This document shows, piece by piece, positions 2,744 through 30,487 of a DNA stretch of 46,784 nucleotides. Source of the DNA: a virus. Lineage: Duplodnaviria > Caudoviricetes. The notes below the pieces were generated by a model. It saw only the letters and a program-made list of their open reading frames with translations. It was not told where the DNA came from and did not search any database. The DNA lies in IMG/VR virus record IMGVR_UViG_3300012231_000016, positions 1 through 46,784 of that record; one strand, 5' to 3'. A program made the translations under genes and the position numbers. The stretch's first letter is position 1; the number at the start of each line of letters is the position of its first letter.

Positions 2744-5700
2744 ATGGCGCTCACCGCAGTCATCACCGCTCCGGTTATCGGTGTACCGGGGGTGCCCGAT
2801 CCGTACATCTTCACCGGCTACAGCTATGTCCGGTTCCATGGGTACAACACGCAGCTCGCCGGACAGACGAAGAAGATCGTTGACTACACGTGGTCGTGGG
2901 GCGACGGGTCATCATTCACGTATGGACCCGTCGCCTCGCACCGCTATCTCACGTCAGGCACCTACACCGTCACGCTGATCGTCACGGACACGGATGGAAC
3001 GATCTCGCAGACCACGACGACCGTGGTCGTGCAGGATTGGAATGCGGCATGGGGGACGATCTACGTCTCTGCGGCCGGCAACGATACGACGGGTAACGGA
3101 ACGATCGGCAATCCCTACCGCAGTCCGCTGAAGGCCTTCCAGGTCGCGTGGGATTCGAAGGTCAAGGGACAGCCGAAGAAGATCCTCCTCAATCGCGGAG
3201 ATACGTACTCCTACACCGGCAATGGTGGGGACGCGTCGCGCGGCACGTTCACTCGCTCGTCGATCTGCGACACGTACGGGTCAGGTGCGAAGCCAGTCAT
3301 CAACGTGAGTGAAGGTATCGACATCGTCCACGGCAACGACAGCAACTCGCATGATTGGGGTTGGACGACGGCCGTCGTTGATTGGAAGTTTGTCTGGCCG
3401 ACTCCCAGCCAGAGCGTGTTGTCGATGACGACGGCCGGATCCTCTTGGATCCGTGCCGAGCACGTGAACGGCACGTTCGAAGCAACGGACGGCAACTTCC
3501 CTCCGATCAAGATCACGTTCGATGGGTGCGATGCGACCGGGCACCTCGGCATTCCAGGTGGCGGTGGCATCGGCTTTTCGAACGCAGGCTCGGCGCGCTC
3601 GACCTTCTTCGGTGTACTCAACTGCAACTGCCACGGCAACTCGGCGAACCGCGCGACGAACGCCTACTTCCACGGCGACATCTTCGAGGTGCGTGGGAAC
3701 ACGTTCGACACCGAGAACAACGGAGTCACCGACGCACTGCTGATGAGTGGCTGCCAGAAGTACCTCGTGATGAACAACGTGTTCTCCGGAGGCACGAATT
3801 CGTGCCTGTCGGCGGGCAGCAACGGCTCGACCGACGGCAGCGCGGAGGCCCAGGACTGCTGGATCGAAGGGAACTTCGCCACCGCGCTCGGGACTGGCAT
3901 CGACCTCCACTACACGAACCGAGGCGTCGTCAAGAATAACGTCATCAACGGATGCTCAGTTGGCATCTTCCTGACGCGCAGCCACGACCCGTACACTACT
4001 GAGTATACGCAGAACATCGATGTCATCGGAAACACGATCATCGGTGCGACCAACCAGTCGATCTGGACGAATGGCGTTCGTACGATCCGCTTCCGCAACA
4101 ACGGCATCACCAAGACGAACAGCGTTCCGGGTGGCGGCGGGGATAGCCACTTCGTGCAGCTCGGTCAGGGATCCCAGAACACGCAGGACGACTACCTCTA
4201 CGTCACGTGCGATGGGAATGGCTACTACGACCCGCTCGTCACCAGCTCGACGGACTACGCCTTCGTCTTCAACAACGGGAACAAGACCTTCGTGCAGTGG
4301 CAGGCGCAGGGCTACGATACGACGACGACCGCAGCGTTCGGCCAGAATCCGCTCTTCAAGAACGCGGGTGCTGGTGACTACTCACTTCAGTCGGGCAGTC
4401 CATGGATCAACGCCGGAGTCGCTACGCCCGAGCTCTACCGCGACTACACCACCGTGGCTCGCTCGTCGATCGACTCGACCGTCGACATCGGCGCCTTCGA
4501 GTTCACGACGGGTCAGTACACGGGCACCGGCAACGGTCAGCTGGGTCGGGTCGTCGGCGATGGCGATGCTCAGATCGGGCAGGGTGGCTCGGGTGGTGGC
4601 GTCTTCAAGAAGATGACCTCGACCGGCACCGGCACGATCGGCTACGTCGGACAGACGAGCTGCAGCGGCGGCGCAGCCCTAGCGGCTCTCGTCGGCGCTG
4701 GTACGGGCGGCACCGACTACACGGGCTCCGGCTCGGGCCTGCTCGACGGCCTCACCGCCGCGGGCGTGGGGGCCCTTCAGACGGCCGGCAGCGGCAACGG
4801 CGTCCTGGCGCGCATGACGGCCCAGGGGACCGGCGCGGTCGGCTCCGAGGGGTCTGGGGCAGGTGTCCTGCCGGCCCTCGTGGGCGTAGGCGTGGGCCAG
4901 ACCTCCACGATGGGCACGGGGGCCGGTGTCCTCCGGCAGCTCGTTGCAGCGGGCCAGGGCGGCTCGAACAACGGGTCTGGAGATGGCGCCCTGGCTCGCA
5001 TGCAGGGCGGCGGCGTCGGGGTCACCGGGATCACCGGCGCAGGCGTAGGTGTCTTCCAGAAGATGACCGGGTCTGGGGTCGGCGGCCTTTTTACCGGCAC
5101 CGGCGCAGGCGTCCTTAGGTCCCTCCTTGCATCTGGCGTCGGAGACAGCAACATCTCCGGCTCGGGAGGGGGGACCTTGCGCGGCATGCAGGCGTCGGGC
5201 GTCGGCGGGTACATCGAGGGCGTCGGTGACGGCCCTCTACGCGGCATGATCGGATCCGGTCTCGCGTTCTTCGGCACCGTCGCTGAAGGCACCGCGCTGC
5301 TTCAAGGCGTCGCCGCGTCTGGCGTCGGCTCTGTGTACATCGTCACGGGTACGGGCACCGGAGTTCTCGGGTCGCTCGTGGGCGATGGTGAAGGCGGCGG
5401 CAACTATGGTACGGGTGATGGCGTTCTCGGGGGCCTCGTGGCTCTCGGCGAAGTGTCCATCGCTCTCGTCGTCGATCTGAGCTCCGACATGTTCGTTAGC
5501 TCGGGCCAGCAGGGTGGCACAGGTACGGTACTCATCGGAGCAACTGACAGCCCGTCGTCCGGGACGCTCTCGTTCCGAATCGGCGACGTGTACCTCGATG
5601 TTCAGAACCATCGGCCGCTGCGGGTCATCGCGATCGGCGGCACGATCACCTTCCAGGTGATCTCGAACCCGAAGGTTCCTGGAGTGATCATCTCGATGTC

Positions 5701-5755
5701 TCTGCAGCGTGCGCGCACGCTCGTGCTGCAACGCAAGCTGCGTCGGATCTCATGA
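2744..5755 (+). CDS. large virion/adhesin-like protein: PKD domain, right-handed beta-helix and Gly-rich repeats
   Basis: YTWSWGDGS...HRYLTSGTYTVTLIVTD (PKD); IYVSAAGNDTTGNGTIGNPY followed by Asn/Gly beta-helix repeats; DIGAFE; C-terminal GxGxGxLxxLxGxG repeats. Confidence 0.75.
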   Translation: MALTAVITAPVIGVPGVPDPYIFTGYSYVRFHGYNTQLAGQTKKIVDYTWSWGDGSSFTYGPVASHRYLTSGTYTVTLIVTDTDGTISQTTTTVVVQDWNAAWGTIYVSAAGNDTTGNGTIGNPYRSPLKAFQVAWDSKVKGQPKKILLNRGDTYSYTGNGGDASRGTFTRSSICDTYGSGAKPVINVSEGIDIVHGNDSNSHDWGWTTAVVDWKFVWPTPSQSVLSMTTAGSSWIRAEHVNGTFEATDGNFPPIKITFDGCDATGHLGIPGGGGIGFSNAGSARSTFFGVLNCNCHGNSANRATNAYFHGDIFEVRGNTFDTENNGVTDALLMSGCQKYLVMNNVFSGGTNSCLSAGSNGSTDGSAEAQDCWIEGNFATALGTGIDLHYTNRGVVKNNVINGCSVGIFLTRSHDPYTTEYTQNIDVIGNTIIGATNQSIWTNGVRTIRFRNNGITKTNSVPGGGGDSHFVQLGQGSQNTQDDYLYVTCDGNGYYDPLVTSSTDYAFVFNNGNKTFVQWQAQGYDTTTTAAFGQNPLFKNAGAGDYSLQSGSPWINAGVATPELYRDYTTVARSSIDSTVDIGAFEFTTGQYTGTGNGQLGRVVGDGDAQIGQGGSGGGVFKKMTSTGTGTIGYVGQTSCSGGAALAALVGAGTGGTDYTGSGSGLLDGLTAAGVGALQTAGSGNGVLARMTAQGTGAVGSEGSGAGVLPALVGVGVGQTSTMGTGAGVLRQLVAAGQGGSNNGSGDGALARMQGGGVGVTGITGAGVGVFQKMTGSGVGGLFTGTGAGVLRSLLASGVGDSNISGSGGGTLRGMQASGVGGYIEGVGDGPLRGMIGSGLAFFGTVAEGTALLQGVAASGVGSVYIVTGTGTGVLGSLVGDGEGGGNYGTGDGVLGGLVALGEVSIALVVDLSSDMFVSSGQQGGTGTVLIGATDSPSSGTLSFRIGDVYLDVQNHRPLRVIAIGGTITFQVISNPKVPGVIISMSLQRARTLVLQRKLRRIS

Positions 5756-5771
5756 GGGAGGGAAGAGTACC

Positions 5772-6029
5772 GTGCCGAACGATTACGACGTTTGGTTCGT
5801 TGACCGCATGCGAGATCGCGTGGACGAGTACAAGAAGAGCGGAGAGTTCCGCCCGGTGACTCCCAGCGAGCTCGTGCGGTTGGTGAAGGCTCTCAACGTG
5901 GTCGAGGGTGATTTGATCGAGGCCCGAGCTGCGCTCGTGAAGCGCGAGAACTACGCGCAGATGGTGAGCGGCCCGGCCCCCAAGGCGACACCGGCGTACG
6001 ACCCGGTGTATGACGTGGAGTTCGACTGA
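5772..6029 (+). CDS. hypothetical protein
   Basis: GGAGG RBS and GTG; stop overlaps the next start. Confidence 0.5.
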   Translation: MPNDYDVWFVDRMRDRVDEYKKSGEFRPVTPSELVRLVKALNVVEGDLIEARAALVKRENYAQMVSGPAPKATPAYDPVYDVEFD

Positions 6030-6241
6030 TGGCGCTCGTCTATGGGATCGCCGCGCTGGTCAGCATCGCGACGGTGTTCTTCTCGTTCCTCAACTTCTCT
6101 GACCTACTCGACGACGCCATCCAGCTGGCGTCCGTGCATCGCACCGTAGGGTGGGCGAAGGTAAGCCGACTCGGCCTCCACCTCTCCCTGCTCGTCCTCG
6201 GAACCGCAACTCTCTTTTGGTCCGTTCACAGCCTCACCTAG
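6029..6241 (+). CDS. small two-TM membrane protein
   Basis: Two hydrophobic stretches in 70 aa. Confidence 0.55.
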   Translation: MALVYGIAALVSIATVFFSFLNFSDLLDDAIQLASVHRTVGWAKVSRLGLHLSLLVLGTATLFWSVHSLT

Positions 6242-8092: not shown

Positions 8093-9039
8093 CGATGGAC
8101 CCGCGCAAGCCGGTCCCCGCTCGCGAGCTGGCTGCGCAGGTCTTCCTCGGTGAGCGCCCGATCGATGTCGAGTTGCAACGAGCAGCTCACACGTTCTACG
8201 TGGACCTGCGCGACTGGCTGACCTACCTCGTCAACGACGCCACGCCGAAGGAGGTCGAGGACTACACCCGGGTGTCCAACTCTAACGGTGGTCTCATCCT
8301 GTACCCATCTCAGTTCGCTCCATGGAGCGGGCTGGAGCTAGTGGTGTTCAAGTCTCCGGAGAACATGATCAATCCCGCGCTGTCTGCGCAAGGCGGACAG
8401 CGGATCGCTGCGGGCGGCACGTACGATCCGCAGTCTGATGTGCTGACGGTGGGTATCAACGGGCTGAACGTCGAGGATCATGTCAAGAAGATCCTCAAGA
8501 TGGTCCTCACGCGACTGTCTACGGCAGAGCGGACCATTACTCACGAGTTCGTGCATCACTTCGACAATCAGCGTTCTGGCGGGAAGGCGTTCATCCATGG
8601 ATCCAAGGGTAGTCAGCCTGGGTGGCGCGGGCGCAAGCAGTCGAAGGAGCCGTTCCTGAGTCCGGAGTGGTCCCGTCGGTTCTCCTTCGACAACCCCGCA
8701 GAGATGAACGCGTACGTGTCGCACAGCGTGCAGCCGATGTTCGATTGGCTTCGTCTTGCACGTGAACGAATCCGTGATGGCTCCGCTTTGGATGATTCGG
8801 GGTTTGCCTTGATGCTGTCGTCCTACGGCCGCTTCGAGGACTTCTTCAACTGGGCCATGATCGGATACGCCACGGATTGGCAGAACAAGCTGTCGCCAGA
8901 AACGCAGAAGAGGCTTCGCAGCCGGATGTACTCAGTGTGGTCCACTTGGAGGGGTCGCCTGGAGCAGATCCGCGCAGAGAACTGGCGCAACTCTGCCGCA
9001 CGTCAATTCGCATCTAGGAATCCACAGGTCGGCTCTTGA
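8089..9039 (+). CDS. zincin-like metallopeptidase-domain protein (putative head-internal protein)
   Basis: TITHEFVHHFD (HExxH) with downstream PAEMNAY glutamate. Confidence 0.6.
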   Translation: MTMDPRKPVPARELAAQVFLGERPIDVELQRAAHTFYVDLRDWLTYLVNDATPKEVEDYTRVSNSNGGLILYPSQFAPWSGLELVVFKSPENMINPALSAQGGQRIAAGGTYDPQSDVLTVGINGLNVEDHVKKILKMVLTRLSTAERTITHEFVHHFDNQRSGGKAFIHGSKGSQPGWRGRKQSKEPFLSPEWSRRFSFDNPAEMNAYVSHSVQPMFDWLRLARERIRDGSALDDSGFALMLSSYGRFEDFFNWAMIGYATDWQNKLSPETQKRLRSRMYSVWSTWRGRLEQIRAENWRNSAARQFASRNPQVGS

Positions 9040-9071
9040 CCTGTCTACCTACCACTCAGAAGGAGAGAGTC

Positions 9072-9434
9072 GTGCTGAAGACGAAGAAGGCGGAGCGGTC
9101 GTCCAATCCCAATGAGATGATCAAGCTGCGCACGAAGTGCCGCTTGATGGATGACAACCTCCTGGTGCAACCCTACGAGCCGCCGCAGATGCTGTCGGCC
9201 GGCGGGATCCTCCTCATCCAGGAGCGCCAGGAGACCTCGATGAAGCAGAAGCCGAACGGGTACGTCCTCGCGACGGGCCCCGGCAAGCTGCTGATGGACG
9301 GCACGCGCGTCCCTGTCGACGCGAGGGTCGGAGACAGGATCGTCTTCTCCTCTGGCGCCGGCCAGGAGATCCGCTTCGACGGGCACTACCTGAAGATCGT
9401 CCGCGGCATCGACGTTCTGATGGTCTTGGAGTGA
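9072..9434 (+). CDS. groES: phage co-chaperonin GroES (Cpn10)
   Basis: DNLLV...SAGGILLI...KPNGYVLATGPGK...GTRVPVDARVGDRIVF...GQEIRFDG.YLKIVRGIDVLMVLE is the Cpn10 signature. Confidence 0.9.
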   Translation: MLKTKKAERSSNPNEMIKLRTKCRLMDDNLLVQPYEPPQMLSAGGILLIQERQETSMKQKPNGYVLATGPGKLLMDGTRVPVDARVGDRIVFSSGAGQEIRFDGHYLKIVRGIDVLMVLE

Positions 9435-17449: not shown

Positions 17450-17884
17450 ATGGCAACGAATCCAGCTCTGGGTGCATTCCAGACGGTACTGAGCGTCGCG
17501 TCGATCGCCTCGACCCTCTCGAATGCCTCCTCGCCTCCGGGCGGTGGTCTCGCGAGCTCGACGATCGACCTCTCGAATCAGACGACTGGCAGCCCGAAGG
17601 TTCACCGCACGGTGGGTGTCACCTTCAAGAACGACTTCACCCTGGCCGGCTCGAACGTGACCACACTGTTCACGGAGTTCTCTCCGGACGGCGGCACGAC
17701 CTATTACGTCGACCACGAGTATGACCAGACGCTCGATGCGAGCGCGGACGACTTCCAGTGGGAAGCGCTGTTCGTGTTCGGTCACGAGTCCTACGCGCGC
17801 ATCCGTGCGCGTGCGGTGACCTCGGATGCGGGTGCGGTCGTGGTCTCGGCGCGTCTGTCGGGTCCGACGCGCGTGGCGGTCTGA
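17450..17884 (+). CDS. putative small virion (decoration-type) protein, paralogue of previous gene
   Basis: GAGGAG RBS; EFSPDGGTTY motif. Confidence 0.6.
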   Translation: MATNPALGAFQTVLSVASIASTLSNASSPPGGGLASSTIDLSNQTTGSPKVHRTVGVTFKNDFTLAGSNVTTLFTEFSPDGGTTYYVDHEYDQTLDASADDFQWEALFVFGHESYARIRARAVTSDAGAVVVSARLSGPTRVAV

Positions 17885-20523
17885 TGAATTCGGGCGGCTC
17901 CCCTGAGCTGCTGACGGAGGAAGTACTCGCTGAGCTCATCGCACAGGAGGACAACCTTCCGCTCTTCGAAAAGCTAGGGGACCGCCCGAACTGGTTGCAG
18001 CTGAACAAGCTGACGGTCTCTCAAGCACGGCCCACCCGAACGGGTGAGCTGACGCTGCGTCTTGGGACGAAGCACCCGAAGGACTACTGGTTTCCGGTAG
18101 ACCCCTACGCGTACACCAAGTTCCTCGACCTCGCGAAGACTCGGAATCGTGGCGCCGCTCTGCGATATCTGCAGCAGTACATCCGTCAGCGCAAGGGCTA
18201 CCGCGGCAACTGGCCCGACTCGCAGTATTTCAACGCGTTCCACATGCGTCCTGGGGATCCGAAGACGAATCCGCTCCGAACCGTTCGCGGCAATGCTGTC
18301 GCGGGTGGTTGGCCAGCGAAGGCGACTGATCGGGTCCAGCGTTACCTGCAGAACCTCAAGGCTCTGCAGGCGAAGAACCGTGAGGCCTTCCTTGCGCGTC
18401 AGCGTGGTGAGGCGACAGCTCCGACGCTGCCGCAGCAGCCTGGATCGACTCCAGGTGGACCCATGCTCGTGCGTAAGGGTGGCATGCCACGGAGCTCCAT
18501 CCTGCACAAGCCTGATCCGCAGCAGGCCGTGCAGCCAGGAATGCAGCCCGGGGCGCGACCGGGTCAGGTCACTCCACCCGCGGCGGATTCTTCTCGGACG
18601 GCGAATACCTCGGCACTGAAGCAGCTCATGCAACGAGCGGCGGAAGACGAGGAGACGCCCAAGAAGCCCAACACCAAGGTGCCGAACAAGGCACTCAAGA
18701 AGGAATCCACGATGGCTGATGCTCCGATGGTTCAGCCGGTTCTGCTCGGAAATCTGATCGGGCTCACCGGCCTCAGCGTCGACCAGTGCTTCGAAGCGGT
18801 CGCGATGTTTCAGTCGGGCAAGACGATCGACGCGGTCGCCTCGGCTCTCAACATCCTCCCGAGTCACGCTGAGCAGCTGCAGATGTACATGCAGTACTAC
18901 GGCTCGGACATTCCGAAGAACGACTCGAAGACGGAAGGAGGTCACGGCGAAGACCGGCGGCCCTTTCGCGAAGGAGCCTCCAAGCCAGACAAGGAGTGCT
19001 CATCGGGGACCTGCGAAGGGCCGATGAAGTATCAGGCCGACCTGAAGCACTTCACGCACGGCAAGCAGCCGGGCTGGCGGTGCGTCACGTGCGGCGACAT
19101 CGATCCAGACACCGACAGTGATGAGTGGAAGAACTCGGACAAGAAGAAGTCCGAGGCCACGACGGTCGCTGAGAAGTTCCAGGACAAGACGCATCCAGTC
19201 TGGAGGTCGAAGACCTACGCGGACTACGTCAAGAGCAAGAAGCCGAAGTCCACGAGCCGTTCGTGCCCGAAGTGTGGAAATGAGTCGGGTGGGTCCTCGC
19301 GCAATGCGTGGGAGCCAACGAGCGGTACGTGTGGCAAGTGTGGTCACAAGGCTGAGTCCGTGCCGTTCAGTCCTCGATATGCAGCCTACAATGCCAACCG
19401 CTGCAAGGCGTGCGGCACGAAGATGCAGTCGAAGGACTACAAGCACGACGACGGCACGCGCCAGTCGGGCAAGTTCTCCGGTCAGTACTGCCCCAAGTGC
19501 AAGAAGATGAACGCAGGGCCACCGAAGAACGAGGCCTTTCCTTCCTGCAAGTACTGCGGCAAGAGCGGAGCGGGCGTCCAGTTCCAGATCTTCAATCCGC
19601 GCTTCAAGCCGTTCGGGACTGCTTGCACCGACTGCGAGAAGAGTCTGCCGACGGACACGCCGAATCGCGGCGAGGAAAAGCCGAAGGCGAAGAAGCGCTT
19701 CCCTGCGAACTTCCCTCGTGTGAAGTCCGAGGCCATCAATCCGAAGTGCCCGTCTGGCAGCGGCTGCAAGTCGATGATGCAGTACGAGCCAGATCTCGGG
19801 CGTCATCATCCAGCACGCTCTGCAATTCGTGGTACTGGTAAGTACCTGCCAAAGGGCGCACGTGCTCCTGCGTCACCTGGATGGAAGTGCCAAGACTGCG
19901 GCACCGAAATTCATGATCGTCGCCCTGCCTCCCGCTTGAAGGATCGTCGTCGCCTCGCTGCAGATCATGAAGGCGAGGAGTGGAAGGGCGAGTCCACCAA
20001 GAAGCCGTGCAGCAAGTGCGGCAAGGATACGGACTGGCCCGACGATGCAGGTCGTCACCTCTGCCCATCGTGTCAGGCTGACTTCCAGGGCAAGGCTCTC
20101 GGCGCGATGGCGAAGGCCGGGATGAAGATGAAGTTCGTCGTGGGCAAGAAGTCCGAGTCGACTGATGACCTCGACGACGAGGATGCGGGCCGCAGCTGCT
20201 CTGCGTGCGGCGGCCAGCTCGGCAAGCTCGGTGATTTGGGTACCCGTCGTCACTATCGCTGCCGCAACTGCGGAGCTCAGTTCTCGCGCTCGACCGCACC
20301 GCAGCAACCGCAAGCGGCACAGCCACAGCGGAGCGCAACGAGTCCACGTGAAGCTGCCGCCGCTAACTCGCAAGCGACCGATACGCGATCGGAGGCGAAG
20401 CGGACCCAGCCAGACAACTGGTGTCTGGGGTGCAAGCGAAAGAAGCTCCTGACCTCCGCTCCTGGGTACTGCAGCCATTGCCGACGCGAAGGCAAGGACA
20501 AGCAGAAGGATGGCAAGCCATGA
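17884..20523 (+). CDS. modular polyprotein: KTSC-like N-terminal region and eight Zn-ribbon modules
   Basis: YWFPVDPYAYTKFL...NRGAALRYLQQYIR resembles KTSC; eight paired Cys-motif modules in the C-terminal ~500 aa; lies directly upstream of the prohead protease. Confidence 0.65.
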   Translation: MNSGGSPELLTEEVLAELIAQEDNLPLFEKLGDRPNWLQLNKLTVSQARPTRTGELTLRLGTKHPKDYWFPVDPYAYTKFLDLAKTRNRGAALRYLQQYIRQRKGYRGNWPDSQYFNAFHMRPGDPKTNPLRTVRGNAVAGGWPAKATDRVQRYLQNLKALQAKNREAFLARQRGEATAPTLPQQPGSTPGGPMLVRKGGMPRSSILHKPDPQQAVQPGMQPGARPGQVTPPAADSSRTANTSALKQLMQRAAEDEETPKKPNTKVPNKALKKESTMADAPMVQPVLLGNLIGLTGLSVDQCFEAVAMFQSGKTIDAVASALNILPSHAEQLQMYMQYYGSDIPKNDSKTEGGHGEDRRPFREGASKPDKECSSGTCEGPMKYQADLKHFTHGKQPGWRCVTCGDIDPDTDSDEWKNSDKKKSEATTVAEKFQDKTHPVWRSKTYADYVKSKKPKSTSRSCPKCGNESGGSSRNAWEPTSGTCGKCGHKAESVPFSPRYAAYNANRCKACGTKMQSKDYKHDDGTRQSGKFSGQYCPKCKKMNAGPPKNEAFPSCKYCGKSGAGVQFQIFNPRFKPFGTACTDCEKSLPTDTPNRGEEKPKAKKRFPANFPRVKSEAINPKCPSGSGCKSMMQYEPDLGRHHPARSAIRGTGKYLPKGARAPASPGWKCQDCGTEIHDRRPASRLKDRRRLAADHEGEEWKGESTKKPCSKCGKDTDWPDDAGRHLCPSCQADFQGKALGAMAKAGMKMKFVVGKKSESTDDLDDEDAGRSCSACGGQLGKLGDLGTRRHYRCRNCGAQFSRSTAPQQPQAAQPQRSATSPREAAAANSQATDTRSEAKRTQPDNWCLGCKRKKLLTSAPGYCSHCRREGKDKQKDGKP

Positions 20524-22264: not shown

Positions 22265-24316
22265 ATGGGCGCTGCTGTACTGACCGAAGAGAAGGTCAAG
22301 CGCGGCCGGGATCAGCTGATGAGCATCGGTGAGCGACTGGCCGACAACTGGCCAGAGCTGACCGAAGGACTCGACGGCGTCGACAAGTCCTACATGGGCT
22401 TGCTCCTGCAGAACCAGGAAGACCACCTCCGGACCGTTCGTCCGCAGGTGACCTTCCGGGATAAGTCGCTGCAGGAAACCACCAAGATCCTCAACATTGG
22501 TGGCTTCGACAAGTTCGCTTCGTAATCGGGAAGGCGAACTAGGTACACAGACCGGATGTCTGTCCATGTTCCCGATCATCCGGGCGGTGTACCCGAATCT
22601 TGTACACAAAACGGGATTCGTAAAATCTGGTGAACTGCTGGAACCCCCTAAAGCTCCACCCCAACAGCGTGGCTGGTAACGGCGAGCGCGACTGGTTGAA
22701 AAGCGTGGAGATGGTACAATGGGAAATCAGCATCCAAGCTCCCGGGCGACCGGGTGAAGGTTCAACGACTACCAGGAGTAACCTGTGGATTGGAAGACCG
22801 CTATTCGTCGAGGCCACCAGCGAGCGTTCGCTGCGCGGTTGCGGCGGGATCGTGCGGTCGATGGCAAGAAGTACAGTCACTTGTACAACGTGCTCGGGAT
22901 GACTACGGCACAAATCGCAGCCAGAGAGGGCTGTACCCCGGAGAACATCCAGCGGAAGTTAGGTTGGCGAGTATTGCGCATCTCAAATGAGCAAGTGACA
23001 AGTGACATCCAATCCGTGATTCGAAGAATTCGATCAGCACTCAGGTGAAACTGGCACGAGCTCCAGACACTACGTACACGTAGTGATGATATAGTCTGTT
23101 CTGCAGGGAAACCTGCAGCAGTCTCGGATAAAGAGCCGAGACGTTAACAACAAGCGTGGCCAACGAGATCTGCTCGGTTCAGCCGATGCAGGGTCCGTCG
23201 TCGATGGTGTTCTACCTCGACTACCTCGTCGGCACGACGAAGGGTTCGACTGCGACCGGCACCGCGTACTTCGATGCGCGCACCGGTCCGATCAACGACG
23301 AGTTCTACCCCTCGGGCACCGTTCCGTCTGAGAACCCAACCAGCACCATCGGCACGATCAACGTCGCGAAGGCGATCGGGGTCGCGCACACGCCGCTGCG
23401 TCCTGGTTCGATCTCGGGCACCATTCTCGAAGAGACGCCGGGTTCCACGACGTTCTACGATGATGGCAACGGCACCCTGATCCTGTCGGCGACGACCTAC
23501 GTCGCGACGGGTACGGTCGTCTATGGCACGGGCATCTTCACGTTCACGCCTGCGTCCGGCAAGACGATCTCGGCCAACGGTCTCACGGTGTCGTACGACT
23601 ACGACACGGAGGCCAACGATGACGTTCCCGCGATCGACCTGCAGCTCACGGCTGCGACGATCCAGGCGGAGGTTCGCAAGCTCCGTGCTCGGTGGTCGAT
23701 GGAAGCGGCGCAGAACCTGGAGAAGCTCCACGGCATCAACGCGGAGTCGGAGCTGGTCGGCGTGCTCGCCGAGGTCATCAAGGCCTCGATCGACCGTCGC
23801 ATCGTAAACGACATCTACGCGTTCGCCAACGCGGGCTCCGTCCAGTGGGACAAGGCTGCTCCGGCTGGTGTTCCGTACGCGGAGCACAAGCTCACTCTGA
23901 TCGACGCACTCATCCAGAACTCGACGCAGGTCTACCGCGCGACGAAGCGCGCCAAGACGAACTGGGTGCTCTGCGGCACGGACATCTGCAACGTCATCGA
24001 ATCGCTGCCGATGTTCAAGGCGGATGCGGACGGTCTCCGTGCGAGCTCGGCAACGGGCGCGCGCAAGATCGGCATGCTGCAGAACCGCTGGGTCATCATC
24101 GAGGATCCGTTCTTCCCGTCCGATCGGTGGCTGACCGGCTACCGCGGTGAGAGCTTCCTCGACAGCGGGTATGTGTACGCGCCGTACATTCCGCTGGTCA
24201 CCACGCAGACGATCTACCTCGACGACTTCATGGGCCGCAAGGGTGCCATGACGCAGTTCGGTGTGAAGAGCACGAACTCGAACATGTTCGCGACGGGGCA
24301 GATCCTGAACGTGTGA
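22265..24316 (+). CDS. major capsid protein (T4 gp23-like), split into three exons: 22265-22519, 22569-22600, 23155-24316 (482 aa after splicing)
   Basis: Joined exons total 1449 nt and read ...LLLQNQ...GGFDKFA|FPIIRAVYPNL|VANEICSVQPMQGPSSMVFYLD...RKLRARWSMEAAQNL..HGINAESEL...GYVYAPYIPL, all gp23-family motifs. Confidence 0.92.
22520..22568 (+). other. 49-nt core-less group-I-like mini-intron in the MCP gene
   Basis: Preceded by U and ends in G; internal guide 22525-22540 pairs with the ligated exon junction over 16 nt with a single G.U at the 5' splice site; contains an in-frame stop and shifts frame; removal restores the conserved MCP motif. Confidence 0.8.
22601..23154 (+). ncRNA. group I self-splicing intron (IA-like, ORF in P7.1 loop)
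   Basis: P1 CGAATCU/GGATTCG with U.G; P element AACTGCTGGAA; Q element AATCAGCATCCAAG; R element GTTCAACGACTA; P3 TCTGG/CCAGA; P8 CACTACG/CGTAGTG; S element GATATAGTC; P9 CTGCAGG-GAAA-CCTGCAG; second hairpin GTCTCGG/CCGAGAC; terminal G23154; splicing gives a CT|C Leu codon. Confidence 0.93.
22785..23048 (+). CDS. intron-encoded 87-aa protein: HTH plus DUF559/Vsr-like endonuclease C-terminal remnant
   Basis: AGGAG RBS and GTG; LYNVLGMTTAQIAAREGCTPENIQRKL (HTH-like); RDR...LGWRVLRISNEQV..DI..VI..I (DUF559 tail); no catalytic DF..EVDG segment. Confidence 0.6.
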   Translation: MDWKTAIRRGHQRAFAARLRRDRAVDGKKYSHLYNVLGMTTAQIAAREGCTPENIQRKLGWRVLRISNEQVTSDIQSVIRRIRSALR

Positions 24317-24398
24317 CGATCTGTCAGGTCTCTTTCCGCACACATCTTGACCTCCCGTGGCTGCTGCCTACCCTGGTGGTGGTCGCGGGAGGGTCATC

Positions 24399-25223
24399 GT
24401 GCTCAGGTGCTTGTTCTGTAAGTCCAAGCCGATCCGCGCCAGCGCCAACTTCTTCTGCGGGCATTCCTGTGCTCGCTCTTGGAAGATCGCCAACCCGAAG
24501 CGCGCTGGTCCGTTTGTGCGTGGTCTCTGTCGAGAGTGCGGCCGCGCGTGGAAGGCGAAGTACCGCAAGGAATTCTGTGGACGTAGCTGCGCGGCGCTTA
24601 ACTGGCGTCGTGCTGCGCGTGAGGCAGTTCCAGTGAAGCGTTGCATCCGCTGCCGCGCCAAACTGCGCTACGACACTTCGCACAAGCTCAAGTTCTGCTC
24701 TCTCACGTGCGCGACGAGATGGCAGTGGGATCGCGGAGACAAAAAGAAGTGGCGTACCCATAAGCCACTCTGCCTTAGCTGCAAGAAGCGCCGTGGTAGT
24801 CACAGCGGGGCGAGGTTCTGCTCGCACGCTTGTGCTGGTACGTATCACACGACCAGTCTGCTTCGTCCCGCGGTCGCCTCGAAGTGCCGATTCCTCGGCA
24901 TCCAGATGCGCTCGGCGTACGAGGTGGCTCTTGCGCGGCAGCTGCGAAAGGCCAGGATCAAGTTCACGTACGAGTCGAAGACGTTCCGCGGCAGGGTTGG
25001 CAGCCGTTCGTGGAACTACACACCAGACTTCTATCTCCCTGAGTACGATCGGTACTTGGAGGTGAAGTCGTGGTACACGTGGAAGATCGGCAGGTCTAGA
25101 CTGGTACCCATCTTGCACCGCATTCGTGAGCGCGGCATCAAGATCCTGCTGGTTACTGGGTCAAAGATAGAGCGCATGCGGAAAGAGTCCGTCCTCGACG
25201 TTCTGCGGCTCAAGTCTGAGTAG
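24399..25223 (+). CDS. free-standing putative homing endonuclease: CxxC...FCxxxC repeats and a PD-(D/E)xK nuclease domain
   Basis: GGAGG RBS and GTG24399; four FC[GS]xxCA repeats; MRSAYE...FTYES..F....YTPDFYLPEYDRYLEVK. Confidence 0.8.
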   Translation: MLRCLFCKSKPIRASANFFCGHSCARSWKIANPKRAGPFVRGLCRECGRAWKAKYRKEFCGRSCAALNWRRAAREAVPVKRCIRCRAKLRYDTSHKLKFCSLTCATRWQWDRGDKKKWRTHKPLCLSCKKRRGSHSGARFCSHACAGTYHTTSLLRPAVASKCRFLGIQMRSAYEVALARQLRKARIKFTYESKTFRGRVGSRSWNYTPDFYLPEYDRYLEVKSWYTWKIGRSRLVPILHRIRERGIKILLVTGSKIERMRKESVLDVLRLKSE

Positions 25224-27461: not shown

Positions 27462-27902
27462 GTGTCTGACAACTCAACCGTCAATGGAACCACGATTGGT
27501 GGAGGTGATACCTTCGCTGCTGATGACATCGGCGGCGTCAAGCACCAGCGCGTGAAGATGGAGTATGGCGCGGATGGTTCGGCGACGGACGTGTCGGATA
27601 CGAGTCCGCTGCCGACGAAGGCACGCCCCTCCGGAACCGGAACGATCACCCGCGTGAATGCGGCGGCCGCCTCGACCCTGATCCTCGCATCGAACGCGAA
27701 CCGGCTCGGAGCCTCCATCTTCAACGACTCCGATGCCATCGCCTACGTGGCCTGCGCCGCGTCTGCGAGCACGTCCCTCTTCACACTCAAGATGCTCCCG
27801 AACACGGGCCCCTACGAACTCCCGTTCCACTACACGGGTGATGTGTACGCGACGTGGGCCTCGGCGACGGGTGCGGCTGTGATGACGGAGTTCACCACCT
27901 AA
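27462..27902 (+). CDS. putative virion fibre/decoration protein
   Basis: GGAGG RBS and GTG; DDIGGVKHQRVK..G.DG...DVS...PLP; N.NR.GASIFNDS. Confidence 0.6.
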   Translation: MSDNSTVNGTTIGGGDTFAADDIGGVKHQRVKMEYGADGSATDVSDTSPLPTKARPSGTGTITRVNAAAASTLILASNANRLGASIFNDSDAIAYVACAASASTSLFTLKMLPNTGPYELPFHYTGDVYATWASATGAAVMTEFTT

Positions 27903-30487
27903 TGCCGTACTCCTCCATCGCCATCGGTTCCGTCTCGGCAGGAACGACGAACGCACTGGGTCCGCAGCTGGTCATCTCGAACAGCAACAATGTGTCGTTT
28001 GGGATCAGCGGATCCACACTCACCGCCAGCATCCCCAGCGGCGCCACGGCGACCGGCAACCTGAACGGCATCTCGGCCGGTACTCGCATGGTGAGTACCG
28101 GAACGGTCGTCTTCGCCAACGCGAACAGCGTCACGTTCGGTATGGCCGGCAACACGATCACGGCGTCCTTCAACGCGGTGGGTGGTGGTGCGTCAGGCGT
28201 CGCGATCTCCGCGAACGGAAGCTCGGTCAACACCGGCACGGCTATCTGGAGCAACTCGAACAACGTGTCGTTCGGGATGTCTGGCTCGACGATCACGGCC
28301 TCGGCCACGGTTGCTACCAGCCTTACGAACATCAAGGTGTCCGCCGGCACGCTGTCGAACAACCTCTCGGCGCTTACGTTCGCGGACGGCAATGGCGTCA
28401 GCTTCGGACTCAGCGGCTCGACGCTCACGGCGTCGGTGGCGCCCGCAGGAGCGGCAAGCGTCAACGTCTCGGCAGGCACGACCTCGAACAACCTGACGGC
28501 CGTTGTTCTCTCGAACAGCAACAACGTCAGCTTCGGCCTCAACGGGTCGACGGTGACGGCGTCGGTCACGGTTGCTACCAGCCTTACGAACATCCTGCTG
28601 TCCGCAGGAACCACCTCCAACAACCTCTCACAGTTCGTCCTCTCGAACTCGAACAACGTGAGCTTCGGGCTCAACGGTTCGACGATCACCGGGTCGGCTC
28701 GCATCTCGATCGCTGCGGGTACGACGGATGCGGGGCTGTCCAGGTTCACGCTGTCGAATTCGAACAACGTCAGCTTCGGGCTCAGCGCCTCGGTGATCAC
28801 GGCGTCGGCGCAGATCAATCTGTCGGCCGGCACCACGTCGAACAACCTCTCGGCACTGACGTTCTCGAACTCGAACAACGTGAGCTTCGGGCTCAACGGT
28901 TCGACGCTGACCGCCTCGGCGTCCTATGCGGCTGAGACTCCGTTCGGGATCTCGGCGGGTACTCAGTCGGTGAGCACGGGAACGCTCGTGCTCTCGAACT
29001 CGAACAACGTCACCTTCGGGATGTCTGGATCGAGCCGGATCACGGCCTCGGTCCATGTCAATCTCTCAGCAGGTACGACCTCCAACAACCTGTCAGCGGT
29101 GACGTTCGCGAATGGGAATGGAGTCAGCTTCGGTCTCGACGCCTCGACGATTACGGCATCCATCGCGACCAGTTTGACGAACATCCTGCTGTCCGCAGGA
29201 ACCACCTCGAACAATCTGTCTGCGTTTGTACTCAGCAACTCGAACAACGTCAGCTTCGGCCTCAACGGGTCCACGATCACAGCGACGGCGACTGTTGCTA
29301 CCAGCCTTACGAACGTCAACTTCTCAGCAGGTACGACCTCCAACAACCTGTCAGCGGTGACGTTCGCGAATGGGAATGGAGTCAGCTTCGGTCTCGACGC
29401 CTCGACTCTGACGGCTTCGGTTGCCACGAGTCTGACTGCGGTCAATCTGTCGGCGGGTACCACCTCGAACAATCTGTCGGCATTCGTCCTCTCGAACAGC
29501 AACAACGTGTCGTTTGGCCTCAACGGCTCCACGATCACGGCAACTGCCACTGTCGCCACCAGCCTGACCGCGGTCAATCTGTCTGCCGGTACGACCTCCA
29601 ACAACCTGTCAGCGTTCGTGCTGTCGAACAGCAACAACCTGTCGTTCGGATTGAGTGGGTCGACGATCACAGGATCGGCCTCGGAGACTCCGTTCGGGAT
29701 CTCCGCGGGTACTCAGTCAGTATCGACAGGTACTCTCATCTTCTCGAACGCCAACGGTGTCAGCTTCGGTATGTCGGGGTCCTCTCGGATCACGGCATCC
29801 ATGTCCCGTCTCACTGGAGACATGTGGGACAACGCCGTAGCCGGGGGGCAGACCTCTCCTTTCGCGACGCATCAGCTCACGGATGATGCTGGCTCGATGC
29901 GCCTCTTCCCGCTGGATGGACATGACTTCGCCTTCCCGTTCGACATGACCGCGAACACGATGTTCCTGAACATGTCGATCACGGCGAACACGCAGGTGCT
30001 GTCTCGGCAGTTCTCGTCGAGCTTCTTCTTCGCTGTGTACACCAGCACAGCAGACAGCCTTAGTCTGCTGAACTCCGCCTCAGTGTCGTATGGATTTGCG
30101 TCTCCAGCGACGAACAACTCCTCGCTGTTCGCAGGCCAACGCTTCCTCTCGTTCCACAGCTCTCAGTGGAGCAGCTCTCCTGTCTTCTCAATGGGCAGTC
30201 GCTATCACGGAGCTCTCATCTGGTCGTCGTCCTCTAACTCGAACACGAACATCGGAGTGTTCGGGCACTATGCGTACTCGACTGGGTCTCGCATGGGCAC
30301 GATTGGAGTCGGGCAATCGGACAGCGCATCGCACCAAGGAATGGCTCCATTCTACGGAATGTACAGCACGACCACTGCTGGTTTCCCTGCTGCGATCGCG
30401 AATAGCGAGATCAACAAGCAGCTGGCGAGCGCCTTGTTCACTCCGCACGTCGTCATGGTGAACAACACCGGGGCGAGCTCTTTCTAA
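27902..30487 (+). CDS. Ser/Thr/Asn-rich repeat fibre protein (~40-aa repeats) with globular C-terminal domain
   Basis: Tandem NLSAGTTSNNLSAxxxSNSNNVSFGLNGSTITAS repeats. Confidence 0.75.
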   Translation: MPYSSIAIGSVSAGTTNALGPQLVISNSNNVSFGISGSTLTASIPSGATATGNLNGISAGTRMVSTGTVVFANANSVTFGMAGNTITASFNAVGGGASGVAISANGSSVNTGTAIWSNSNNVSFGMSGSTITASATVATSLTNIKVSAGTLSNNLSALTFADGNGVSFGLSGSTLTASVAPAGAASVNVSAGTTSNNLTAVVLSNSNNVSFGLNGSTVTASVTVATSLTNILLSAGTTSNNLSQFVLSNSNNVSFGLNGSTITGSARISIAAGTTDAGLSRFTLSNSNNVSFGLSASVITASAQINLSAGTTSNNLSALTFSNSNNVSFGLNGSTLTASASYAAETPFGISAGTQSVSTGTLVLSNSNNVTFGMSGSSRITASVHVNLSAGTTSNNLSAVTFANGNGVSFGLDASTITASIATSLTNILLSAGTTSNNLSAFVLSNSNNVSFGLNGSTITATATVATSLTNVNFSAGTTSNNLSAVTFANGNGVSFGLDASTLTASVATSLTAVNLSAGTTSNNLSAFVLSNSNNVSFGLNGSTITATATVATSLTAVNLSAGTTSNNLSAFVLSNSNNLSFGLSGSTITGSASETPFGISAGTQSVSTGTLIFSNANGVSFGMSGSSRITASMSRLTGDMWDNAVAGGQTSPFATHQLTDDAGSMRLFPLDGHDFAFPFDMTANTMFLNMSITANTQVLSRQFSSSFFFAVYTSTADSLSLLNSASVSYGFASPATNNSSLFAGQRFLSFHSSQWSSSPVFSMGSRYHGALIWSSSSNSNTNIGVFGHYAYSTGSRMGTIGVGQSDSASHQGMAPFYGMYSTTTAGFPAAIANSEINKQLASALFTPHVVMVNNTGASSF
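29064..29406 (+). repeat. 85-bp exact direct repeat (29064-29148 and 29322-29406) within the fibre repeats
   Basis: Identical TCTCAGCAGGTACGACC...GACGCCTCGAC copies 258 bp apart. Confidence 0.8.

Follow-up and report, generated by a model that had tools for sequence, protein, structure and literature searches.

A core-less insert in a phage capsid gene, likely excised from the mRNA by the tethered ribozyme of a neighbouring group I intron

A 49-nt insert that lacks a catalytic core interrupts the major capsid gene of a T4-like phage, and it is probably excised from the capsid mRNA by the ribozyme of a neighbouring full group I intron, to which predicted pairing with the intervening exon would tether it. 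There is a reasonable though less secure case for a broader reading, in which satellite introns that live off ribozymes form a class of their own in nature. The insert would provide a guide, a terminal G and an antisense tether that makes a surrogate P2 from exon sequence, and a single group I core would remove two introns from one essential mRNA.

The twice-interrupted capsid gene

The window analysed here is the whole 46,784-nt stretch of virus record IMGVR_UViG_3300012231_000016, which is estimated to be about 22% complete and carries T4-like head and tail genes. Its capsid gene encodes a Gp23-type major capsid protein and occupies the usual place, next after the prohead protease gene. The gene is interrupted twice, by a 49-nt insert at 22520-22568 and then, 32 nt further on, by a 554-nt group I intron at 22601-23154:

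22265-22519, plus strand: exon 1 of the Gp23-type major capsid gene, 85 codons, ending ...GGFDKFA, identified from its open reading frame and homologues
22520-22568, plus strand: proposed core-less mini-intron, 49 nt, with an in-frame TAA at 22523-22525 and G22568 as last base
22569-22600, plus strand: micro-exon 2, 32 nt (FPIIRAVYPN + CT), comprising the P10 partner (22569-76), T2' (22577-83), an internal loop (22584-86), T1' (22587-93) and one strand of the large intron's P1 (22594-600)
22601-23154, plus strand: full group I intron, 554 nt (Rfam RF00028), the proposed helper ribozyme
22785-23048, plus strand: 87-codon ORF within the large intron, with a weak DUF559 match (E 1.9e-4), a probable endonuclease remnant
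23155-24316, plus strand: capsid exon 3 (Pfam Gp23, E 1e-56; PHROG 138, major head protein)

The large intron matches RF00028 at 51.6 bits against a cut-off of 50. It has no P2, and UAAAA joins its P1 (22594-600:22614-620) directly to P3. This intron is the only ribozyme in the virus record; since the record is only about 22% complete, other helpers may exist.

Several other genes of the window merit mention. Directly 3' of the capsid gene, 24357-25223 encodes a free-standing endonuclease with Cys-rich repeats and a phage endonuclease I-like domain, which could mobilise the introns; it has no significant similarity to the ORF of a capsid-gene intron in a related locus (L344). Just upstream of the prohead protease, a 921-aa ORF (17758-20523) contains many CxxC zinc-ribbon-like repeats and matches no family above the cut-off, while an 877-aa ORF (27854-30487) with many near-identical Ser/Asn/Thr-rich repeats is without a match in Pfam and PHROG. 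The phage also encodes a GroES co-chaperonin (9036-9434; Pfam Cpn10, E 4e-14), which together with the T4-like head and tail genes suggests a bacterial host.

The original prediction placed the insert correctly. T22519 precedes it, G22568 is its last base, exon 1 runs into the TAA at 22523-22525, and excision of the 49 nt joins FDKFA to FPIIRAVYPNL, as had been claimed. When all boundary pairs that remove 46, 49 or 52 nt were tried, FAFP was restored only in the register from 22518/22567 to 22520/22569, and among these pairs only 22519/22568 has a U before the insert and a G at its end. The restored motif was compared with 119 homologues (the best 120 of 148 matches, minus the window's own). 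Within these best 120 of 148 matches, FDKFAFPIIRAVYP occurs exactly in 10 of the 119, none of the 114 that cover the motif has an insertion between FA and FP, and the motif is identical in length in 110 of the 114, the other four having two extra residues upstream of the break. Alignment through one homologue (P0005) puts the break inside mature T4 gp23, at about its residue 31.

An insert unsupported by reads was among the outcomes that the original prediction had named as fatal. Contigs of all four DNA runs examined for an assembly error bridge the insert with zero differences; two of these runs are possibly the window's source, and the two others carry the insert unchanged. A further locus (L082) matches the window at 99.96%, and in runs X7, X9 and X10 the insert is not covered. 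The insert is confirmed as a real feature and not an assembly error. The one RNA run (X16) contains only an exon 3 piece from a relative, which begins at 23155, the large intron's predicted 3' splice site, preceded by seven unshown letters; this piece could be either spliced or derived from an intron-less allele, and it bears on the large intron only.

A group I substrate without a core

The insert carries a 16-nt guide, the two halves of which face the two exons:

22512-22519, plus strand: exon strand of the mini-intron P1, with splice-site U22519
22525-22532, plus strand: P10 half of the guide, 8/8 pairs with 22569-22576 (duplex -10.8 kcal/mol)
22533-22540, plus strand: P1 half of the guide, with G22533 facing U22519

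As originally described, the ligated junction and 22525-22540 are reverse complements, the sole exception being G22533 opposite U22519. Three features of group I splicing are found: a P1 of 8 bp with U22519·G22533 at the 5' splice site, a P10 in which the guide makes 8/8 Watson-Crick pairs with the 3' exon, and a terminal G, G22568. The terminal U22519·G22533 pair is predicted with a probability of only 0.45, as the top of the stem can also pair in other registers. The guide matches at 15/16 positions, and 100,000 shuffled versions of the insert give no more than 13. In a window-wide scan, the guide scores 16 and ties for the top of 19 hits, while 12 shuffled windows give 90 hits and none above 15. 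Its score-16 twin lies inside an open tail-sheath ORF, so such scores are possible by chance where the reading frame imposes no constraint.

The catalytic core is missing. No group-I-like Rfam match occurs in 22300-22700 at E up to 10, and only 28 nt follow the mini-intron P1, 14 of them in the tether described below. The argument that P3-P8 have no room in the insert thus stands, with neither a core match nor a P7 G site found, and the insert falls outside the group I family proper because it has no core. It likely acts as a group I substrate. A local hairpin within the insert (z -1.25) was considered and rejected, as it is gone once exon 2 is folded along.

Removal by an archaeal bulge-helix-bulge endonuclease and ligase is barely credible. 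The short size of the insert would suit that route, and nothing else does; P10 is the sole duplex between the junction regions, no bulge-helix-bulge is present, and the GroES and T4-like genes point to a bacterial host.

Translation might instead pass over the gap, in the manner of T4 gene 60. Ribosomes would take off at UCG 22520-22 and land at UCC 22563-65, giving the product FA-S-M-FP. The UAA stop right after UCG is in keeping with bypassing, as are the position of UCG at the top of a hairpin, the GGA placed 6 nt before a Ser codon in frame (a mini Shine-Dalgarno falls 5-7 nt away) and the Ser-stop end shared by the exon 1 protein of a relative (P0122). However, UCG and UCC are not identical codons, nor do they form a G/A or U/C pair as in all cases in the accessible text of 10.1101/2022.08.31.505936. 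Moreover, the resume frame holds neither GCU nor UCG, and the gap is 53% G+C (26/49) and lies in a predicted helix, so it is not AU-rich. The product would gain two residues where 0 of 114 motif-covering homologues (from the best 120 of 148 matches) have any, and bypassing would leave P10, the U·G wobble and the final G as coincidences. Bypassing is accordingly highly improbable, and excision as a group I substrate remains the preferred reading.

Thirty of 33 insert bases read as antisense of the surrounding mature mRNA, an arrangement that a template switch could give. In a synonymous recoding control, 4,848 of 50,000 recodings score at least 30/33, so the match to the gene's own codons is not special. 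The insert might be an inert inverted copy, or a dead intron remnant, in a capsid gene that is defective or yields its protein in two parts, translation restarting at ATG 22566. That ATG is in frame with exon 2, and an intact second capsid gene is possible in the unseen part of the genome. Nevertheless, the order of the two antisense blocks is swapped and a G faces the splice-site U exactly; 4/4 runs show the insert without change, and a relative with 73% protein identity has the same stop. The gene also stands where expected, behind the protease, the break interrupts the mature chain, and only GGA precedes ATG 22566, compared with GGAG at the gene's own start. An inert insertion is very unlikely on this evidence, which favours an excised insert.

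A predicted tether to exon 2

Downstream of the guide, the tail of the insert is antisense to exon 2:

22542-22548, plus strand: tether T1, which pairs over 7 bp with 22587-22593 of exon 2 and adjoins the large intron's P1 with zero gap (predicted probability 0.99-1.0)
22552-22558, plus strand: tether T2, 7 bp with exon 2 22577-22583 (predicted probability 0.97-1.0)

Together these make 14 bp, predicted at a probability of at least 0.97 in unconstrained folds of both 128-nt and 801-nt contexts. T2 is predicted to close an 18-nt loop that contains the 3' splice site and the P10 partner. The tethered fold is calculated at -43.5 kcal/mol versus -17.5 untethered, a gain of 26, as a prediction that leaves the P10 pseudoknot outside its scoring. 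Tail and exon 2 match at 15/17 positions, and the best of 10,000 shuffles reaches 14; the eight full capsid-gene introns compared, the neighbour included, score 9-10 against their own 3' exons, that is, all 8/8 are without such a tether.

Exon 2 would be paired along its whole length apart from a 3-nt loop, with no base between T1' and the large intron's P1. With the entire 32-nt exon paired, the splice sites of the mini-intron would be presented to the neighbour's core. The original prediction overlooked this tether, and its predicted abutment on the neighbour's P1 strengthens the reading of the insert as a core-less intron served by the neighbour's ribozyme. The P1 loop of the large intron (22602-22607) reads GTACAC, complementary to exon 2 22587-92, and GTACACA is common to the mini-intron tether. 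Exon 2 could instead form a hairpin with the large intron's 5' terminus, which might have acted as a switch, but this hairpin has a predicted probability of at most 0.01 and the switch was dropped.

Group I chemistry might also be supplied by another catalyst, whether a free excised intron, an intron in the unseen genome or the insert itself assisted by exon sequences. The evidence of P1, P10 and the terminal G applies equally here, and the record is 22% complete. For the self-splicing variant, which is claimed for the fungal PaSSU intron, the accessible text of PMC3160393 reports that a 67-nt intron having P1, P10 and a pairing from its middle to the 3' exon was spliced in vitro. Against these routes, neither a trans nor an autonomous reaction needs a tether that ends exactly at the neighbour's P1, and an autonomous one would have to fit a G-binding P7 into the 10 nt left after guide and tether, which are too few. 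Another catalyst is therefore unlikely, and the neighbouring ribozyme is the better candidate.

One argument for the neighbour has weak support. Both the mini-intron and the full intron do end in CA-N-G, as stated, and the original prediction took this to mean that either end could pair, as P9.0, with the two bases after P7 of the full intron. This rule fits only one of the seven other full capsid-gene introns. The end AACA-N4/5-G is found in 7/8 full introns and is absent from the mini-intron, for which a P9.0-type 3' end would have two possible pairs only. The insert has no clear similarity to the neighbouring intron.

Proposed mechanism

Larger group I introns have the layout P1-P2-P2.1-core. 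In the folded capsid transcript, the chain P1(mini) - A - T1/T2 tether hairpin - P1(large) - UAAAA - P3 would mimic this layout, with the tether as a surrogate P2, and such mimicry could allow the core to dock the upstream P1(mini). Guanosine would then attack U22519, after which the strong P10 would bring G22568 out of the tether loop and place it in the G site. Exon 1 would be ligated to exon 2 and not to exon 3; skipping exon 2 shifts the frame. P10 would select G22568, as guide pairing is worth -10.8 kcal/mol with exon 2 versus -2.1 with exon 3.

The large intron would be spliced through its own P1. Either order of splicing would be workable, since the tether would also keep P1(mini) near a ribozyme that had stayed on the ligated exons or bound them again.

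Relatives and further copies

The exon 1 protein of one relative (P0122) is 73% identical to that of the window, has the same length and ends FDKFAS. It stops at the same point, which indicates that insertion at this site has persisted; the P0122 insert may be a full intron. Two further exon 1 proteins (P0125 and P0126) also break after FDKFA, and four (P0127 and P0130-P0132) do so a few residues earlier, such that P0125, P0126, P0127, P0130-P0132 and P0135 all break within about ten residues of the site. In L344, the DNA that encodes P0129, a full 325-nt group I intron (4224-4548) lies one base downstream of the mini-intron site. These sequence comparisons suggest that the region may be an intron hot spot, which makes descent of the mini-intron from a full intron through loss of the core plausible.

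Other capsid loci vary in intron content. The L344 capsid gene has two full group I introns (4224-4548 and 5186-6212), the first of which shares with the window's large intron a GATAAAGAGC hairpin motif near the 3' end. The capsid gene at 2336-5035 of L338 (also L291 and L320) combines three full group I introns with a 62-nt micro-exon, and no mini-intron was seen there. Single-base frameshifts in the capsid genes of L126 (at about 70) and of L063 and L133 (at about 5261) are probably sequence errors.

The original prediction had proposed a search of related capsid genes for short inserts of the same kind. A same-site short insert was found in none of 138 other capsid loci. A same-site short-insert pattern search gave 0 hits, and a guide-pattern search gave 22 hits, 0 of them in capsid genes. 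Beside 66 group I cores there were 4 hits versus 3 in shuffles, only the window's own copy being convincing. The core-motif survey covered 127 sampled stretches of about 4,200, and a P1/P10 scanner run on the 127 loci returned 15 hits versus 8 in shuffles, with the reading frame checked for L175 only. The L175 hit was rejected, as it spans a stop codon and the start of the next gene, ahead of an ordinary intron. Across viral sequences, a metagenome, a genome and annotated phages, no second mini-intron was found.

Significance

Group I ribozymes in nature are taken to act a single time, and on their own RNA. If the proposed excision is correct, the neighbour would be a natural multi-substrate group I ribozyme, the insert would be a parasite that lives on another RNA's enzyme, and the pair would offer a living model of introns handing catalysis to a shared machine. 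A core-less intron that leaves a capsid mRNA would make the step from self-splicing to dependent intron testable with one 0.8-kb transcript, and the tether hints at a compact way of steering a ribozyme to another target. Metagenome annotation is affected as well, since inserts of this kind split capsid genes, with exons 1 and 3 then recorded as two proteins. Group I action on a separate substrate is otherwise known from engineered constructs, according to the accessible text of PMC2532722.

Comparison with known systems

Other systems resemble the insert in part. Phage group I introns (RF00028), including the capsid cases in L344, L036, L338 and L135, likewise have a U·G P1, P10 and a terminal G. 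Among them, the full L344 intron is inserted 1 nt from the mini-intron's site, and the group I introns of L338 likewise cluster around micro-exons. In contrast to these introns, the insert is 49 nt long, lacks a P3-P9 core and an AACA-N4/5-G end, and has a predicted 14-bp tether to its downstream exon. The capsid gene of Bacillus phage SP-15 is a joined one, with an endonuclease ORF inside it.

Group III introns, found in euglenid plastids, are reduced forms that retain splice-site elements and are believed to borrow their catalytic parts. Although similarly reduced, they differ from the insert in their organellar location and in their descent from group II introns, with lariat chemistry.

The T4 gene 60 cassette is alike in its length of about 50 nt, a stop right after the hairpin codon and a GGA 6 nt before a codon for the same amino acid, as far as the accessible text of 10.1101/2022.08.31.505936 describes it. 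The insert differs in that it has no matched take-off and landing codons, is not AU-rich and has splice-type guide pairing to both exons.

Small degenerate introns of fungal SSU rDNA (PaSSU of Phialophora; those of Arthonia and Porpidia) come closest in anatomy. In the accessible text of PMC3160393 they measure 56-81 nt, with a G·U-bearing P1, P10 and PM present and most core helices absent. P1, P10 and a pairing from the middle of the intron to the 3' exon are thus shared with the insert. The same text places the fungal introns in eukaryotic rRNA, ends them in U, credits them with P7 and describes them as self-splicing with the help of flanking rRNA. The insert instead ends in G, lacks a P7, lies in a phage capsid mRNA and would be tethered beside a complete ribozyme. 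The original suggestion that this arrangement is undescribed in phages therefore holds in one respect and needs amending in another, as no natural case was found and the anatomy has a precedent in fungal rDNA (PMC3160393, accessible text). The accessible literature on group I introns, small introns and trans-splicing, mostly from outside the subscription journals, gave no natural example of a phage intron that lacks a core and is spliced by a neighbour.

For the proposed chemistry, the nearest parallels are engineered. In vitro and in trans, pseudoknot substrates that form P1 and P10 are spliced by a truncated, guide-less Tetrahymena ribozyme (Sargueil and Tanner 1993, through PMC2532722); the accessible text of PMC2532722 gives 10-100 mM Mg and 55-65 C as the conditions required for the in vitro trans reaction. 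Trans-excision-splicing ribozymes are likewise engineered group I constructs (PMC2532722, accessible text), and engineered trans-excision is used in the available part of PMC12270912. As far as these partial sources describe them, such cores also remove a segment between a U and a G, and the substrate of the truncated ribozyme brings its own P1 and P10. They are laboratory constructs, whereas the substrate proposed here is natural, covalently upstream of the core and would be placed by an exon tether.
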